IMG/VR virus record: IMGVR_UViG_3300020120_000075
Coordinates: 1 to 30,212 of that record
Length of the DNA: 30,212 bases
Direction: 5' to 3' (one strand)
Source: a virus
Taxonomy: Duplodnaviria > Caudoviricetes
Shown here: positions 11,976 to 26,126 of the stretch, one piece after another
Numbering within the stretch: position 1 is the stretch's first letter
Layout: each line of letters begins with the position of its first letter
Program-made: the position numbers and the translations under genes
Notes under the pieces: generated by a model
The model's input: the letters and a program-made list of their open reading frames with translations, nothing else
Told to the model about the DNA's origin: nothing
Databases searched by the model: none

Positions 11976-12331
11976 CCGAGACGCGGATTCACGGTCAATC
12001 CACCGGTGGCAAGCCCATCAACCTCGCCCAACTGCAGGGTGAAATGGTTACGGCCGGCGTCCACGTCGATGGACTGGGCCTCACGGATGACTACGTGCAT
12101 CTGTATGACGGTGAGGGGCAGCCGGCCGATTTCGCGACGGCCGACCAGCCGATCGTGGACGCGGCGATCAGCGCGCACGTGGCCATGCGCGACAAGACCG
12201 ACGCCGAGTACGCCACCGAGTTTCAAGACCCGAACACGACGCCCGCGCGCAAACAGGAAATCCGCGACATCACCGCTGGGCTGCTGCCGCGCGAGCAGGT
12301 ACCGATGACCGCGGAGGATATGCCGCAATGA
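11972..12331 (+). CDS. Hypothetical protein (possible fibre chaperone)
   Basis: ATG 11972 overlaps the fibre stop; 119 aa. Confidence 0.6.
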   Translation: MTETRIHGQSTGGKPINLAQLQGEMVTAGVHVDGLGLTDDYVHLYDGEGQPADFATADQPIVDAAISAHVAMRDKTDAEYATEFQDPNTTPARKQEIRDITAGLLPREQVPMTAEDMPQ

Positions 12332-12519
12332 CCGACTACAACGTTGGGCCTGGGGTCGCCCAGGCAATCGCCGACAACGGCGACGAGGCTCGCTCAGACG
12401 AGCGATTCGTGATCCTCGAGGAGGGCCACAAGGTGTCCCTGACCCTGGCGCGCGACAGCCAGTACTGGTGGTACGAGGAGGATAACCGGGTCAACCGGTT
12501 ACCGTTTCGAGACTCCTAG
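12328..12519 (+). CDS. 63-aa N-terminal endolysin module (zero-frame product, candidate cell-wall-binding domain)
   Basis: Coupled ATG start; ends CCG TTT CGA GAC TCC TAG. Confidence 0.65.
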   Translation: MTDYNVGPGVAQAIADNGDEARSDERFVILEEGHKVSLTLARDSQYWWYEEDNRVNRLPFRDS

Positions 12520-12991
12520 CGAGCCACCGATCCTCTATGACCCGTGGACCTCACAACCGGGTCAGCTCTACGACTGGACGTGCAGCGCCTGTTCGTTGGA
12601 CTGGGTCAAGCGAGCGATGGGCCTGGTCACGGTCGACGACATCTACGGCAGCCGTCAGACGACGGTGTACGAGATCGGCTATCCGGACCAGATCAATGCG
12701 ACATACGGATTGATGGATAGTTCTGGCTCAGCGCTGCGCACAGTGCTGGACGGCTATGGGCAGCCCAGCGAGCAGGGCTGGTTGGACTTCGACACGACCT
12801 ACGCCCTCGCCCAGGGGACGATGGGCATGATGTCGGGCGCCGCCTGGTATCACTGGGTCGGCATCCGGGGTGTGGACGCTGGCTGCATCTGGGTGGCGAA
12901 TTCTGCACCTAACTACAAAGGTGTGGTCGACCACGTTTCGCGCGACGACTTCGCCCGACTGGGCGGCTTTAGCGTCGTCTGGCTGGTGTGA
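12328..12991 (+). CDS. C39-like cysteine peptidase endolysin, probably made by +1 frameshift at 12505-12508 (~220 aa)
   Basis: The +1 frame reads ETPSEPPILYDPWTSQPGQLYDWTCSACS...YHWVGIRG...IWVANS, giving the Q/C/H/N catalytic pattern. No ATG/GTG/TTG lies between the in-frame stop at 12440 and the Cys. Holin-like genes follow. Confidence 0.65.
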
Positions 12992-13005
12992 GGGAGGGAT
13001 TTCAG

Positions 13006-13167
13006 GTGCAGATAGGCGGCACCGCGGCACCCTGGCTGACGATCGGGGCGATCATCGCCGTGATCGTGTTACTGCTGGCGATCCTGGGACTGGTGGGCGT
13101 CCTGCCCATGAGCGCGACCGTGGTCTTTGGCCTGGTCGCGGCGCTCGCGGTTGCAAGGCTCGTCTAG
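13006..13167 (+). CDS. Holin-like two-TM membrane protein, 53 aa (not in ORF track)
   Basis: GGAGGG RBS and GTG start; MQIGGTAAPWLTIGAIIAVIVLLLAILGLVGVLPMSATVVFGLVAALAVARLV. Confidence 0.65.
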   Translation: MQIGGTAAPWLTIGAIIAVIVLLLAILGLVGVLPMSATVVFGLVAALAVARLV

Positions 13168-15670: not shown

Positions 15671-15699
15671 AGTATATTGCACACGCTACATGAGCGCAA
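15671..15699 (-). promoter_or_regulatory. Leftward sigma70-type promoter
   Basis: Minus strand TTGCGC-17 nt-TATACT upstream of the SWIM operon. Confidence 0.65.
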
Positions 15700-15707
15700 C
15701 ATATAAT
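15677..15707 (+). promoter_or_regulatory. Rightward promoter for a leaderless XRE gene
   Basis: TATAAT at 15702-15707 with ATG at 15714; TTGCAC -35 at a long 19-nt spacing. Confidence 0.55.
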
Positions 15708-15713
15708 GGTCAC

Positions 15714-15938
15714 ATGCTAAACATGAGTGAAACAGAATTCGCCGCGGCGCTCGCCGTCCGTGTCCGCACCCTGCGAATGCGGCACGCCTACTCTCAGGAA
15801 GAGCTCGCGAGGCGCGCGGGCCTCGCCCGCGGGGTCGTCATCAACGTCGAGAACGGTCAGCGCCTGGTCAGACCTGCCAGCGTGCGCAAGCTGGCCCGCG
15901 CCCTCGCCGTGACGCCGCTGCAGCTCACCAGCGACTGA
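15714..15938 (+). CDS. XRE-family HTH transcriptional regulator
   Basis: 'VRTLRMRHAYSQEELARRAGLARGVVINVENG...SVRKLARALAV'; no S24 peptidase domain. Confidence 0.85.
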   Translation: MLNMSETEFAAALAVRVRTLRMRHAYSQEELARRAGLARGVVINVENGQRLVRPASVRKLARALAVTPLQLTSD

Positions 15939-15963: not shown

Positions 15964-15996
15964 GCCCCGCGTCGCAAGTTGGCGAGCGACCGGGGC
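15964..15996. terminator. GC-rich hairpin with minus-strand U-rich tail
   Basis: GCCCCG-C-GTCGC...GCGAC-CGGGGC, preceded on + by AAACAACAGAAGT. Confidence 0.35.
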
Positions 15997-16033
15997 GTGG
16001 CAGATCAAACAGTTTGGAAAGGACTGACCTGCA

Positions 16034-16231
16034 ATGACCAGTGTAACGAATACCACACCAGCATCCGACGGCCCCAGCCCGAGGCGTCGGAAGTCAAAAT
16101 ACCCCGAGCTTCGCATCACCGAGACCATGGTCGTTCACGATCCGGCTGCGCTTGGCAAAGCTGCCGAGGCCTTCGTGAAGGCGCTGTATCGAGTACGCGC
16201 AACGCAGCCACACGACGAGGAGCTGGCATAG
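16034..16231 (+). CDS. Small protein coupled to the integrase
   Basis: 65 aa; AAGGA RBS; its TAG overlaps the integrase GTG. Confidence 0.6.
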   Translation: MTSVTNTTPASDGPSPRRRKSKYPELRITETMVVHDPAALGKAAEAFVKALYRVRATQPHDEELA

Positions 16232-18297
16232 TGGTCACCCTGGCTGAACGACGCAGGCTTGCCGCCAGCCGCCGCGACTACCTCCGTGTCGTCGTCACCG
16301 AGCTCGAGCGCCCGCGTCGCGTAGCACTGATGGTTCGCGTCAGCACCGAGGAACAGAGCGAGCGCGAGACATACAAGGTACAGATCGACACGCTCGAGGC
16401 GTTGGCGCGGGCGCGGCAGCTGGACAGCACCCCGGACCGCGATCGCGTCCACGTCGTCCACCGCATCGTCGACGACGGCGTGAGTGGTACCAAGCCGCTG
16501 AGTGAACGCTCGGACGGTCGTCGTCTGATTGGCATGGTTTGCAGCCGCGCTGACGAAAAGTGCCGCGGCGAATGCGGTGGCGGTAGCGGCGTTGAGATTG
16601 ACGAGGTCTGGGCCACGCGCCTGGATCGCGTCGCGCGTCGTCTGCAGCTACTGATGGAGATCCACGTCTTCCTCGAGAGTCACGGCGTGAAGCTGGTCAT
16701 CGATGACCCGCACATCGACACCAGTGACGAGTTCGGCAAGCTGCTCTTCAACATCCTGGGTGCGATCGCCGAATGGGAGCGCGACATCATCGCCAAGCGC
16801 ACCGCGCAAGGCCGTCGCTCGAAGGTGGCACTGGGCAGGTGGAAAGGCGGCCTGCTGCCCTTCTGGTTATCCACTGATGAAAACGCCAACATCCTGGTTG
16901 AGGACCGACTGATCGACGCCTGTAAGCAAAGTGCGTCCGACCTGATGCGCGACATCATCCGCCGTATCACCAGCCACGAGGTCACACCCCAGGAAGAGTG
17001 CCTGCGCCTGACTGCGCTCGGCGTACCGCTCCAGGTGATGCCCAGTCTCGATGAGCCGGGCGTCCTGGTCGCCAAGCCCAACAAGAAGACGCGTGCCGAC
17101 GGCGCCTGGCGTCCGAGCCAGCTCCGCGACCTGCTGCACGACACCAAGCTAGCCGGCTACTACAAGATGGACATCTACGCCCGAGATCGGAACGGCAAGC
17201 GCATCAAGGGCGAGGACGGCAAGTGGATCGTCCAGGAGACGATCGAGTCGACGTCGCCGGCGTTGATCTCGCAGGAGGACTACGACGCGCTGCAGGCAGC
17301 GATTGACGAGAACAGCCACCTGCCTCCGCCCAATGCTTCGCGCACTTACCTGCTGAGTGGTCTGATCCGCTGCGGGCGACCTAACTGCGGCTACACCTGG
17401 TCAGGTTTCACCGCCAAGGACCCTGGTTCAAAGGGCCCCGAAGATCACTTCCGGACTGACGGCAGTCGCGGCGGTCCAGGCAGTCGCGGTGGCAAGGGTC
17501 GCAAGGCGGGCACCTGGAGCTACTACCAGTGCAGCGCCGGCAGCAGTGCGACGACCGAGCGCCACCAGGACGGCCGCGGGTGTACGACGCGTTCGGGCAT
17601 TCGCGCCCTGGAGATCGAGGGCGCGGTATGGGCGATCGTCGAAGCGATCGTGCGCAATCCGCAGCAGCTCCTTGAACGGGCCCAGGCGGAGATCGACGCC
17701 AGACGGGCTGACGTGCCTGCGCGCGATGCGCGTCTGGTGTCGATCCGCGAGCGACAATACGAGCTGTCACGCGAACGGGAACGTGTCGAGATGGCGCATC
17801 AGAAGGGCAGGAGCAGTTGGGCCCGAACTGAGCGCGAGCTGGACCACATCGACGCCCAGGTCGCCGAGCTAACCCGTGAACGCGCCATGCTCGAGTCGAA
17901 CGAGCGCATGCTCGATTCGATGAACGCGCGTCTGCAACGCTCAGGCGTTGTTATCGCCGAGTACCGCGACAAACTCGACGACCTGGATGATGAGCGCAAG
18001 CGCGAACTCATTCGGCTGTTCGTGCCCGAGGTGGTCGCTTTGCAGAGCGGGCGCAAATGGAAGGCGCGCGTGGTCGTCGACCTGGGGGCGCTGGTAGAGC
18101 GCGAAGCGACGGCGGCGCTTGGGGCGCTTGTAACCGCTTGTGGGCAGCAGTCGTTTCGAGGAGCAAACCAGCCGGAGGTCGCAAATTATCGTCGCTGGGT
18201 GATCGAGCAGGCTCAGGCTGCTGCGCAGGATCATGATCCTGCAGCCCGCTCGCTGCAGTTCGAGGTTGCCCTCTCGTCGTCCAGCGATCAGGACTGA
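16231..18297 (+). CDS. int: Large serine recombinase (integrase)
   Basis: Catalytic 'VRVSTEEQ', 'DDGVSG', 'RLDRVAR' and 'AIAEWERDII' motifs, recombinase domain, zinc ribbon 'LLSGLIRCGRPNCG...YYQC...C' and coiled coil. The GTG 16231 start is inferred. Confidence 0.92.
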   Translation: MVTLAERRRLAASRRDYLRVVVTELERPRRVALMVRVSTEEQSERETYKVQIDTLEALARARQLDSTPDRDRVHVVHRIVDDGVSGTKPLSERSDGRRLIGMVCSRADEKCRGECGGGSGVEIDEVWATRLDRVARRLQLLMEIHVFLESHGVKLVIDDPHIDTSDEFGKLLFNILGAIAEWERDIIAKRTAQGRRSKVALGRWKGGLLPFWLSTDENANILVEDRLIDACKQSASDLMRDIIRRITSHEVTPQEECLRLTALGVPLQVMPSLDEPGVLVAKPNKKTRADGAWRPSQLRDLLHDTKLAGYYKMDIYARDRNGKRIKGEDGKWIVQETIESTSPALISQEDYDALQAAIDENSHLPPPNASRTYLLSGLIRCGRPNCGYTWSGFTAKDPGSKGPEDHFRTDGSRGGPGSRGGKGRKAGTWSYYQCSAGSSATTERHQDGRGCTTRSGIRALEIEGAVWAIVEAIVRNPQQLLERAQAEIDARRADVPARDARLVSIRERQYELSRERERVEMAHQKGRSSWARTERELDHIDAQVAELTRERAMLESNERMLDSMNARLQRSGVVIAEYRDKLDDLDDERKRELIRLFVPEVVALQSGRKWKARVVVDLGALVEREATAALGALVTACGQQSFRGANQPEVANYRRWVIEQAQAAAQDHDPAARSLQFEVALSSSSDQD

Positions 18298-18569: not shown

Positions 18570-18845
18570 TCAGCGGGAGTCAACTTTGTCCGCTGGGTCG
18601 CTCAGGGCCAGTAATTCGTCGGGCTTGACGTGTAGCGCCGCGGCCAGCTTGCGGATCGTTTTCGGCCACGCGGGACGATCCTTTTCGAGCTTGATGATGG
18701 TCGAACGCGAAACGCCGGACGCCTTCTCGAGCTCTTCCTGAGACAACGAGCGCCGCTGGCGCCAGTATCTGAGGCGTGGCACGGGAAGCAGAGGCACGAC
18801 CAGAGATGGTCGTACACGCGCCTCAGGCTGAACAGTGCCGGTCAT
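18570..18845 (-). CDS. XRE-family HTH transcriptional regulator
   Basis: 'LRYWRQRRSLSQEELEKASGVSRSTIIKLEK...TIRKLAAALHV'; start uncertain (18845 or a downstream GTG); no peptidase domain. Confidence 0.85.
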   Translation of the reverse strand: MTGTVQPEARVRPSLVVPLLPVPRLRYWRQRRSLSQEELEKASGVSRSTIIKLEKDRPAWPKTIRKLAAALHVKPDELLALSDPADKVDSR

Positions 18846-18866
18846 GTGGCACCTGAATAGTACAGT

Positions 18867-18938
18867 AGTAGCGCGTGCTACTTGCACGGTCAAGTGCCGG
18901 CCGGCGTATTGACACGTTTCGTTTACGTGGCGTAAACG
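18867..18938. promoter_or_regulatory. Divergent promoter region with two palindromic operators
   Basis: AGTAGC-GCGT-GCTACT (18867-18882), TTGACA (18909-18914) and CGTTTACG-TGG-CGTAAACG (18920-18938). Confidence 0.55.
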
Positions 18939-22291: not shown

Positions 22292-22494
22292 TGGCTTGGG
22301 CGCGTACGCAAGTTCGGCGTGGCCCCGTGCGCTGCAAGCTGGGTGGGCCGGCGCCGTGCATTGACGACCTGTGCCACGGGGTCGACGTCACGATGTGCGG
22401 CCTGCACTACGGCTTCGACCTGTGCGACCACGGCAATGATCCGGAGCTCTGCGACGAATACCCGTGCGACGTTGAGCGCGAGGACGACTTCTGA
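22291..22494 (+). CDS. Cys/Asp-rich small protein
   Basis: 67 aa with seven Cys; coupled at both ends. Confidence 0.55.
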   Translation: MAWARTQVRRGPVRCKLGGPAPCIDDLCHGVDVTMCGLHYGFDLCDHGNDPELCDEYPCDVEREDDF

Positions 22495-22904
22495 TGGCGC
22501 GCAACGTCGTCCTGGTCGCGTTCGGCATCGTCGTCGGCACGGTCTTCGGTGCGGCGCTGCAGATCCACGCCGCGGCTGAGGGCGGCGCCTCGGATCAGGT
22601 CGAGAAACCGGAAGTCGCGGAAGTGCCGGAAGTTGCGGAACCGACACCCGAACCGGGGTACGGCGTGTGGGACCGTCTTGCGCAATGTGAGAGCAGCGGC
22701 CGCTGGAACCGGAACTCCGGGAATGGGTACTTCGGTGGTTTGCAGGAGGACCTGGTGTTCTGGCGACGCCACGGCGGGCTGGCGTATGCATCGCGGCCGG
22801 ACCTTGCCACACGCGGGGCCCAGATCGCGGTCGCCCAGCAGGGCCTGAGTGTGCAGGGATGGCAGGCATGGCCCGTGTGCTCGCGTGTGATTGGAGTGCG
22901 TTAG
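22494..22904 (+). CDS. rpf: Resuscitation-promoting factor (Rpf)-type lytic transglycosylase with signal peptide/TM anchor
   Basis: 'WDRLAQCESSGRWNRNSGNGYFGGLQ...W...GG..YA.RPDLATR..QIAVA......QGWQAWPVCS' with the catalytic Glu and both Cys; hydrophobic N-terminus ending IHA-A; PEVAE linker. Confidence 0.88.
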   Translation: MARNVVLVAFGIVVGTVFGAALQIHAAAEGGASDQVEKPEVAEVPEVAEPTPEPGYGVWDRLAQCESSGRWNRNSGNGYFGGLQEDLVFWRRHGGLAYASRPDLATRGAQIAVAQQGLSVQGWQAWPVCSRVIGVR

Positions 22905-24703: not shown

Positions 24704-24918
24704 GCATTGCCGTCGATCATCTGCGCGAGCGGATCGAGCACCATCCCGCGGGTGCACGACTGCAGCGCTGGGAGGTCCAGCGTATCGCCGAAGCGTTCGA
24801 GAGACGGGGAGATTTGTCGACCCGTGATACGCCGCGACGCATGGACCTGGACGCCTATCTGAATGGCTGGTGCGACGCACTCCGCCAGCATCACTACGCA
24901 GGCTGGAAAGACGTGTGA
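24700..24918 (+). CDS. Hypothetical protein
   Basis: 72 aa; coupled start and stop. Confidence 0.55.
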   Translation: MSIAVDHLRERIEHHPAGARLQRWEVQRIAEAFERRGDLSTRDTPRRMDLDAYLNGWCDALRQHHYAGWKDV

Positions 24919-26126
24919 TCGAACTCGTCTCGCCGGCCGAGATGAGAGTGCGCGAACTGACCGCGGAGTTCGCAGACAGTTGGCGGCGCACCATCGCGCT
25001 CGCCGTCGAATTAGGACAGGCCTTACTCGCTCTGAAACGCGAACTCGGGCATGGTCGGTGGCTGCCGTGGATTCAAGATCCTAGCCATTTCCCGATGGGC
25101 GAGCGTATGGCGCAACACTTCATGGCGCTAGGGACAAATGCGAAAGAAATTTCGTATTTGCCAGCTGAGACCACTCTGAGCGCGGCGATCCTATGGCTAC
25201 AGTCGCAGCGACGAGCGCAGCGGAGCCTGCGCAATGGTTTGGTGCAGGAGGGCCTGCCGCGGCCGATTCCGCCGACGGTCCAGATTGAGCTCGGCGACGC
25301 CAGACGGTTGCCGCTGGACGACGGCTCAGTCCATCTCGTTGTGACCTCGCCGCCGTACAACGCCCGCCTCATGTATGACGGGTACGAGGACTGGCTGCCC
25401 TGGGAGGACTACTGGGATGGCCTGATCGTCCCGGCGCTGCGCGAGGCGTACCGCGTGCTCGTACCGGGTGGGCGCCTTTGTCTCAACATGGCCAACGTCG
25501 TGCGCCAGGATGTCGAGGGCGAAGCGCGTCCCGGTATCTATGAGGCGTGGCGGACGAATGGCACGCGCAAATGGAGGCCGCCAGGCTCGAATGGCCGTCC
25601 GTGGGCGGCATTCATCGACGCCTATCTGCTGCCTGCGCTGGAGGATGTGGGCTTCATGCTGCGCGAACGCATCACTTGGGTAAAGGGTGAGAGTCCGGAG
25701 CAGGTCACGTCGCAGTCGACGGCATGGGGCACCTGGTGCTCGGCGGAAAACCCGGTGCTGCGCGCGGTCGCCGAGCCCGTGTACGTCGCATCGAAGACGA
25801 CCTGGGCGCGCGAGCCGGCTGACAGCGACTTGGAGCCGGAGGAGTTCAAAGCGTGGACGCGAAACGCATGGTTCATTCCGGCAGTGCTGGAGTCGGACGC
25901 TTGGGGCAATCCCGCGGCCTTCCCGGTTGAGCTGCCGCGCCGGCTGATCAAGCTGTACAGCTACCCGGGCGACCTGGTGGCGGACCCGTTCATGGGCGGT
26001 GGCACGACGCTGGTCGCCGCAGCGAGGTTGGGGCGCTGGGCGTACGGCTGCGATGTCAGCGAGCGCTATGTCGCGGTGGCTCGCGCGCGTGTGGGAGCGG
26101 AGATCAATTCAGAAATGGAGCGATAG
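24915..26126 (+). CDS. Beta-class N4/N6 DNA methyltransferase with N-terminal DUF3102-like domain
   Basis: 'VVTSPPY' precedes 'DPFMGGGTT'; N-terminal 'ELGQALLALKRELGHGRWLPWI....ERMAQHFM' domain. Confidence 0.88.
   Translation: MIELVSPAEMRVRELTAEFADSWRRTIALAVELGQALLALKRELGHGRWLPWIQDPSHFPMGERMAQHFMALGTNAKEISYLPAETTLSAAILWLQSQRRAQRSLRNGLVQEGLPRPIPPTVQIELGDARRLPLDDGSVHLVVTSPPYNARLMYDGYEDWLPWEDYWDGLIVPALREAYRVLVPGGRLCLNMANVVRQDVEGEARPGIYEAWRTNGTRKWRPPGSNGRPWAAFIDAYLLPALEDVGFMLRERITWVKGESPEQVTSQSTAWGTWCSAENPVLRAVAEPVYVASKTTWAREPADSDLEPEEFKAWTRNAWFIPAVLESDAWGNPAAFPVELPRRLIKLYSYPGDLVADPFMGGGTTLVAAARLGRWAYGCDVSERYVAVARARVGAEINSEMER

Follow-up and report, generated by a model that had tools for sequence, protein, structure and literature searches.

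The DNA analysed here, referred to below as the window, is a stretch of 30,212 nucleotides from a soil phage (IMG/VR record IMGVR_UViG_3300020120_000075, positions 1 to 30,212). Its gene content is that of a temperate tailed phage, including a major head protein, a collagen-like tail fibre, a serine integrase, a repressor and a terminase. The same stretch was also present in 24 runs from 24 studies, which sampled soil, rhizosphere and in one case a microbial fuel cell; no run is on record as RNA.

The gene under study is divided between two reading frames (Table 1). ORF1 starts at an ATG that overlaps the TGA of an upstream 119-aa gene (ATGA) and ends in TTA CCG TTT CGA GAC TCC TAG. The +1 frame is closed upstream by a TGA at 12440–12442 and is open from 12443 to 12991, and it has no ATG, GTG or TTG codon until the TTG at 12596, by which point the conserved residues Gln (12563) and Cys (12581) have already been passed. 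When TTTC (12505–12508) is read as a single Phe, the two frames join into an open protein of 220 aa. A previous reading, made from the sequence alone (the sequence-only reading), had described a peptidase frame lacking a usual start before its catalytic residues, a 63-aa ORF with this same 3′ end, and a UUU to UUC slip leading into a linker and the peptidase. The layout of the two frames was confirmed, and the junction was as predicted. The window site departs from the family consensus in having CCG instead of CCC and in the four-codon distance to its stop.

Table 1. Coordinates of the split gene, its RNA elements and other features of the window.
Feature	Position	Strand	Remarks
ORF1	12328..12519	+	ATG 12328 to TAG 12519; 63 aa (60-residue module + 3); 0-frame product
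SD-like GAGGAGG	12475..12481	+	Glu-Glu-Asp codons; 5′ of hairpin; role not supported
7-bp hairpin TAACCGG-gtcaa-CCGGTTA	12483..12501	+	ends directly 5′ of E-site codon
Shift site CCG TTT CGA	12502..12510	+	family consensus CCC TTT YGN
+1 frame	12509..12991	+	Pro-rich linker and C39/papain-fold cysteine peptidase
0-frame stop TAG	12517..12519	+	4 codons past Phe
59-aa membrane protein, holin-like	12988..13167	+	overlaps peptidase stop; PHROG holin E 0.054 (weak)
XRE-like repressor ORF	15690..15938	+	
Large serine integrase	15979..18297	+	phrog_95; flanked by the two XRE-like repressor ORFs
XRE-like repressor ORF	18570..18893	−	by resemblance only
Transglycosylase-domain protein	22494..22904	+	136 aa; hydrophobic N-terminus; phrog_29757, E 4e-19
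DNA methyltransferase	24870..26126	+	extra N-terminal domain; phrog_67, phrog_15609, phrog_6146

The sequence-only reading had also raised an indel at the junction as a concern. Contigs from seven of eight other runs (four of four, then three of four further runs, X16 having no coverage of the junction) cross this point with no differences or gaps, in a comparison of assembled contigs rather than raw reads that includes three possible sources of the window itself (X8, X9 and X13).

The peptidase was predicted with a pLDDT of 90.9, and a Foldseek search matched it to the C39 peptidase of PCAT1 (E 5e-6, TM 0.62) and to the pseudomurein peptidase PeiR (E 3e-5). The best viral fold match was an annotated endolysin of Gordonia phage OneUp (E 9e-6). 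The catalytic set of Gln 12563, Cys 12581, His 12851 and Asn 12899 (Q20, C26, H116 and N132) was invariant in 34 aligned sequences. None of the 34 peptidase members matched a Pfam peptidase family, neither the module nor the peptidase had a match in Pfam or PHROGs, and no match was found among isolated phages. A small hydrophobic ORF follows in 90 of 110 loci, compared to 0 of 101 control positions. The split gene is likely to be the endolysin gene of the phage. The transglycosylase-domain protein, which we take to be Rpf-like, lies in the early/replication region, outside the lysis cassette. A Chloroflexota MAG is the named source of one module protein, and a whole contig of 39.7 kb from a related phage, with a +1 junction (L215 and L292), lies inside a Gemmatimonadales MAG; co-binning is possible in both cases.

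Frame relationships at homologous junctions

Homologous junctions were gathered by scanning viral, metagenome and genome contigs, several of the scans supplying their best 80 matches only. This yielded at least 139 junctions that were distinct over 150 bases, which left 135 for classification after removal of a free module copy (in L235) and three junctions at contig ends. A +1 shift was needed in 92 of these and a −1 shift in 32, three of which have, as assigned by Pfam, Amidase_2 in place of the peptidase; the remaining 11 were fused in frame. The junctions are not independent, the first 120 collapsing to 68 (+1), 14 (−1) and 3 (fused) at 85% identity. Single in-frame ORFs among the homologues had been named in the sequence-only reading as an observation that would speak against a shift, and they are the minority: the 124 split homologues have long open downstream frames, and all of the 11 in-frame genes carry a −1 slip site and stop.

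Codon phase agreed with the direction of the shift in 135 of 135 junctions. The junction Phe was TTT-Y in every one of the 92 +1 loci and T-TTY in all 32 of the −1 loci. Because of runs of T, the sites of one +1 locus and of 14 −1 loci are competent in the opposite direction too. Elsewhere, TTT accounts for 16% of the Phe codons in the peptidase frames, for 21% in nine window genes, and for 40 out of 184 at the other Phe positions of the module in the +1 loci. The codon that follows TTT in the +1 loci was TGA in 45, CGN in 41 and another codon in 6. Among the Arg codons of the nine window genes, CGA makes up 6% and CGG 13%, and we infer from such usage that the A-site codon is slow, either as a stop or as a rare codon. 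The preceding codon was CCC in 76 of 81 +1 loci and TCC in one. A stop occurs within two codons of the Phe (one or two codons past it) in 87/92 +1 and 31/32 −1 loci, while the Phe-to-Cys spacing is alike in the three states (medians of 27, 28 and 25 for +1, −1 and fused). The +1 ribosomal shift at TTT that was first proposed from the window is strongly supported by this conservation and by the coupling between phase and direction, and the TTT-CGN or TTT-stop motif that the sequence-only reading had proposed to look for in homologues was found in 86 of the 92 +1 loci.

Among the −1 loci, 21 have the heptamer CCCTTTY, 10 have GCT-TTY and one has T-CCT-TTT. The ten with GCT-TTY alone would permit only a single-tRNA slip. 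They form a clade with GCT-TTY-stop and no full heptamer (L048, L068, L072, L081, L082, L085, L089, L093, L095 and L098), in which a strong hairpin of about −21 kcal/mol starts 3–4 bases on the 3′ side. This layout resembles a non-canonical −1 shift at a stop in PMC6321510, in the available text of which such a shift is possible given a bridging nucleotide.

Two quick trees, one of the peptidase (108 rows) and one of the module DNA (135 rows), were used to count changes of state on starred branches only. On both trees the −1 label changes at least seven times and the fused label three to five times, counts of direction change that recombination may inflate. A single slip has CCC-TTT-Y at one end and C-CCT-TTY at the other: a ribosome on the former would move forward, and one on the latter back. 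A CCC-TTT-Y with a −1 or 0-frame partner, which a downstream indel would produce just as easily, was not seen in any of the 135 junctions. Together with the fit of phase to direction, this points to selection on ribosomal decoding and argues against polymerase slippage. A −2 shift was also considered and rejected, since tRNA-Phe is unable to pair on CCT and the base preceding CCC varies.

All 11 fused genes have C-CCT-TTY, that is, CCCTTTY in phase, with a −1-frame stop one or two codons on. Two fused clades have retained the rare codons of the heptamer: CTC-CCT-TTC-GGT and GTC-CCT-TTT, respectively, show no variation, against differences of 9–42% and 25–32% at four-fold sites; the rough chance of such invariance, as products calculated by hand, is ≈0.006 (14/54 × 4/26 × 4/26) and ≈0.008 (25/60 × 2/21 × 4/20). 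Since they keep the heptamer and the −1 stop, the fused genes would still free the module through a −1 truncation like that of copA and dnaX. One locus (L235, 2280–3714) carries a free 61-aa module gene, an antisense 211-aa ORF with what we presume to be HNH-like motifs, and then a fused module–peptidase gene that keeps CCCTTTT and the −1 stop. Distant in-frame N-terminal module fusions, available as proteins only (P0199, P0201, P0202 and P0021), continue P-F-G-D/E, which is compatible with a retained −1 stop; in P0021, P0199 and P0202 the partner is GH25.

The hairpin 5′ of the shift site

The window hairpin has a folding energy of −13.3 kcal/mol (12470–12504; z −1.98). In the +1 loci, the 18-base segment from −21 to −4 was 3.9 kcal/mol more stable than its synonymous shuffles (mean Z −2.5). 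It was the strongest of 45 such segments, non-overlapping ones ranging from −0.6 to +0.2, and its mean Z was −1.2 in the −1 loci and −0.4 in the fused loci. Covariation in the register of the window, calculated from 64 +1 sequences, was 0.218, compared to 0.102 for shuffled sequences (0/500, with a shuffle that ignores relatedness) and at most 0.108 when the register was slid. Only 56% of the cells were paired in the fixed register, with a stem of 4–7 bp, because the register of the hairpin moves between lineages.

The hairpin was stronger in the +1 loci than in the others (p 0.0004). Counted over independent pairs, it went with +1 by 5.8 to 0.1 of 7 pairs on the module DNA tree (p 0.031) and by 4.9 to 0.1 of 8 on the peptidase tree (p 0.0625). 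In the clearest sister pair, the +1 locus L111 has a hairpin of −9.6 kcal/mol, versus −0.4 in the fused locus L109, which has a 3′ stem of −17.7. The hairpin is weak or missing in some +1 loci (0 kcal/mol in L121 and L132) and present in several −1 loci. Structure on the 3′ side in −1 and fused loci gave an uncorrected p of 0.029 (control 0.35), which became 0.125 and 1 on the trees.

From these comparisons the hairpin is likely to be a stimulator of the +1 shift. In the available text of PMC6321510, engineered hairpins next to the E site raise +1 and attenuate −1 shifting on E. coli 70S ribosomes. The two systems share this E-site adjacency, the association with more +1 and less −1, and the bridging nucleotide (T-TTY in our family). 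However, the hairpins in that study were synthetic, the effective one having a 12-bp GC-rich stem that was active in vitro only without RF2, whereas the present family offers a natural phage candidate with a short stem.

A 5-mer of the SD-like sequence upstream of the hairpin was present in 70/92 +1, 15/32 −1 and 1/11 fused loci. The spacing seen in prfB, where the SD lies 3 nt 5′ of the shift codon, was not found: the linear distance is 21–26 nt, with a median of 8 nt when the hairpin is looped out. The possibility that the hairpin brings GAGGAG to the prfB spacing was not supported, the independent pairs giving a p of 0.25 and the median spacing being 8 rather than 3 nt. The locus had no Rfam match and no tRNA.

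The module and its partners

The module was predicted as a helix and a four-stranded sheet (pLDDT 93.5), and its mean column identity is 73%. Its best structural match among 48,161 chains was to the LGFP repeats of MytA (6swz; Z 7.3, rmsd 2.1, 55 of 60 residues aligned). MytA took the two top places (Z 7.3 and 5.9) and the next, unrelated chain had a Z of 5.0. The LGFP repeat (PF08310; C. glutamicum MytA, PDB 6SWZ) shares with the module a length of ≈55–60 residues and a helix with a three- to four-stranded sheet. However, MytA has five repeats in tandem, whereas the phage module is single and has neither a PF08310 profile match nor an LGFP motif. Because all Z scores were below 8 and there was no sequence match, we only call the module LGFP-like. 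A sequence search of the PDB returned T-cell-receptor noise only, and Foldseek gave no match at E ≤ 0.001. An SH3 identity suggested by ESM Atlas clusters (≤0.85) finds no support in the predicted helix-plus-sheet fold.

Besides the peptidase, the module is joined to Amidase_2, SLT, GH25, NlpC/P60 and glucosaminidase domains. Occurrence on several types of hydrolase is the pattern of a wall-binding domain, and according to the available text of PMC11299179, the LGFP repeats of MytA bind the cell wall. With its predicted fold, the module is likely to be a cell-wall-binding domain. In L054 (3001–3704), L252 and L267, the module with its −1 site runs into Amidase_2, from which it appears that the cassette moves between enzymes.

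In other proteins the module is C-terminal, evidence that consists of protein sequences only; a search for the DNA of these genes (SLT-like) found none. Met was found at the first module residues in 14 of 22 such proteins among the matches listed (1.7 expected; 1 and 0 in upstream controls), and in 6 of 18 in a further set from which repeat-driven matches were left out (1.5 expected; controls 1 and 2). Pooled, 20 of 40 have Met, and 12 more have Val at the same place. This suggests that internal starts may free the C-terminal modules; Met at this place is also a possible relic of gene fusion.

Interpretation and comparison with known systems

The reading that best explains these observations is a split endolysin gene that yields a free binding module and a module–peptidase fusion through slippage of tRNA-Phe, to which we assign a probability of roughly 0.72. 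Most ribosomes would stop after the 60-residue module, while a fraction would slip by one base and add the peptidase. While decoding is held up by a slow A-site codon (CGA in the window; UGA or CGG in most relatives), the peptidyl-tRNA-Phe on UUU in the P site would re-pair +1 onto UUC, a slip that refolding of the hairpin beside the E site would likely aid. CCCTTTY could slip both ways, and in relatives where it is one base out of phase a −1 slip would serve instead, adding the enzyme in 32 loci and releasing a free module from the fused genes in 11. The purpose would be to set an excess of free binding module over enzyme, the two probably co-assembling into a multivalent enzyme as in Lys170 and LysP7951. 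The parts of this reading differ in strength: we regard the programmed ribosomal shift as highly probable and selection for the free module as probable, while the chances of a heteromeric assembly of module and enzyme, which is argued by analogy, appear about even.

A more ambitious version is offered tentatively, at slightly below even odds. A single seven-base site in a lysis gene would act as a reversible recoding switch that is read as +1 with the hairpin, as −1 to add the enzyme, or as −1 to truncate, and that has flipped repeatedly; with C-terminal relatives using an internal start, three unrelated translation routes would have converged on freeing a new LGFP-like subunit of a heteromeric endolysin.

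The strongest alternative, though an unlikely one, is that the shift serves only as a throttle that keeps the enzyme low, in the manner of prfB and possibly with RF2 sensitivity, the free module being a by-product. TTT-TGA, found in 45 of the 92 +1 loci, is a shifty stop of the prfB type as given in the available text of PMC5009743, and a low lysin level could matter for the timing of lysis. However, the fused genes, in which the enzyme would be the main product, keep the −1 site and stop in 11 of 11 cases, C-terminal modules often begin with Met, L235 carries a separate gene for the free module, and the module is well conserved. The sequence-only reading had left a choice between setting the ratio of module to fusion and throttling lysis; the former is better supported, by the retained −1 stop of the fused genes and by the C-terminal Met, and the latter loses ground.

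It is less probable still that the module is a virion component to which the shift adds a minority wall-digesting extension for infection, like the Ig-like domains on capsids and tails. The gene does sit after tail-like genes and is coupled through its ATGA to the upstream ORF, and Ig-like extensions made by +1, −1 or no shift are known from the available text of PMC5009743. However, the partners of the module are typical endolysin enzymes, a holin-like gene comes next in most loci, the best viral fold match is annotated as an endolysin, and the module is found C-terminally, too.

RNA polymerase slippage of the Roseiflexus IS630 type, stimulated by the nascent 5′ hairpin and giving transcripts one base shorter or longer, appears very unlikely. 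It could serve all three junction states, and the hairpin does lie 5′-adjacent to a pyrimidine tract, as for the T5C5 of IS630 (PMC5009743, available text). However, the T runs are just 3–5 long and broken in the window (CCGTTTC), with no T5C5-like tract. Moreover, such slippage is blind to codon phase, yet phase fits direction at every junction across repeated switches, and the next codon is a stop or CGN in 86/92 +1 loci.

Even less plausible are two separate proteins, with the peptidase beginning at its own non-canonical or downstream codon. A common start (ATG, GTG or TTG) precedes the domain in 49 of 114 split peptidase loci, and SD-like GAGGAG is nearby; however, only 5 of the 114 combine a start with an SD-like sequence, at scattered positions. 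The ATA at 12482, which the sequence-only reading had suggested as an alternative start near AGGAGG, is in frame with the peptidase as stated, but this position is ACA in 54 of 85 +1 loci, and initiation there was rejected on this ground. Separate starts would also leave the invariant TTT-Y and the −1 phase unexplained. An assembly error or pseudogene, in favour of which the 11 in-frame homologues might be cited, is practically eliminated by the gap-free contigs from other runs, the many split homologues with long open frames, and the invariant catalytic residues.

The preferred reading, a split endolysin gene with a programmed shift, has partial precedents. In the available text of PMC9430671, endolysins assemble with free binding domains at 1:3 to 1:5 or 2:2, and Lys170, LysIME-EF1, CTP1L/CD27L and LysP7951 likewise produce a full enzyme and a free binding domain from one gene. 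However, in the Lys170 type the free domain is C-terminal and comes from an in-frame internal start, whereas here it is an N-terminal module with a predicted frameshift, and co-assembly is proposed by analogy. The word “frameshift” is absent from the main text of PMC9430671, which treats two-polypeptide endolysins.

The available text of PMC5009743 describes UUU_Y as +1-prone in bacteria and provides further counterparts. In prfB (RF2), with CUU_UGA (UUU_U in a minority), and in YopN–TyeA, with UUU_Ynn, the P-site tRNA slips onto UUY while a stop or slow codon occupies the A site, as proposed for the phage; unlike prfB, which has an SD 3 nt 5′ of the site, the split endolysin gene has a cis hairpin there, and its short product looks functional. 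The fused relatives share with E. coli copA (CopA(Z)) and dnaX (tau/gamma) an X-XXY-YYZ heptamer with a −1 stop immediately after it, by which an N-terminal domain would be freed, but in the phage family one homologous site occurs in three interchangeable states, and truncation is only one of them. A short-to-long ratio is also shared with the G/GT tail chaperones and the Ig-like capsid and tail extensions of phages. However, those genes have structural or assembly roles, and the Ig-like extensions differ in direction because they were inserted separately, whereas in the present lysis gene the direction flips at one and the same Pro-Phe site. The parallel to influenza PA-X (UCC_UUU_CGU) that was drawn in the sequence-only reading stands in so far as UUU_CGN is shared by the window and 41 of the +1 loci. 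However, PA-X involves eukaryotic ribosomes, UCC is nearly absent from the phage family and about half of the loci use a stop instead, so that the bacterial UUU_Y and shifty-stop sites are the closest model.

Programmed frameshifts and two-polypeptide endolysins are each known, but their combination and the flips of direction at one homologous site did not appear in the literature searched and are apparently new. That search, mostly of open-access main texts, found no frameshift-built endolysin; lists of phage frameshifts in supplements could bear on this. In its available text, PMC9671017 goes no further than predicting shifts in genes that neighbour those for endolysins and holins, and the available portions of PMC10885494, PMC7724435 and PMC3989731 contain nothing on lysins. 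In the same literature, hairpin control of shift direction in bacteria was described for engineered constructs only.

If the reading is correct, lysis enzymes would join tail and capsid genes among the targets of programmed frameshifting in phages, and two-polypeptide endolysins would arise by a second route in addition to internal starts. Gene callers would then be splitting hundreds of such genes and truncating the enzyme ahead of its catalytic Cys; among the matches listed there were at least 710 clusters of short module proteins, compared to at least 23 of long ones. The module itself is an unannotated domain common to at least six types of hydrolase. The family amounts to a natural mutagenesis series in which one site occurs as +1, −1 and fused alleles and the 5′ hairpin is either present or missing, which makes it directly testable whether a refolding upstream hairpin sets the direction of the shift in nature.
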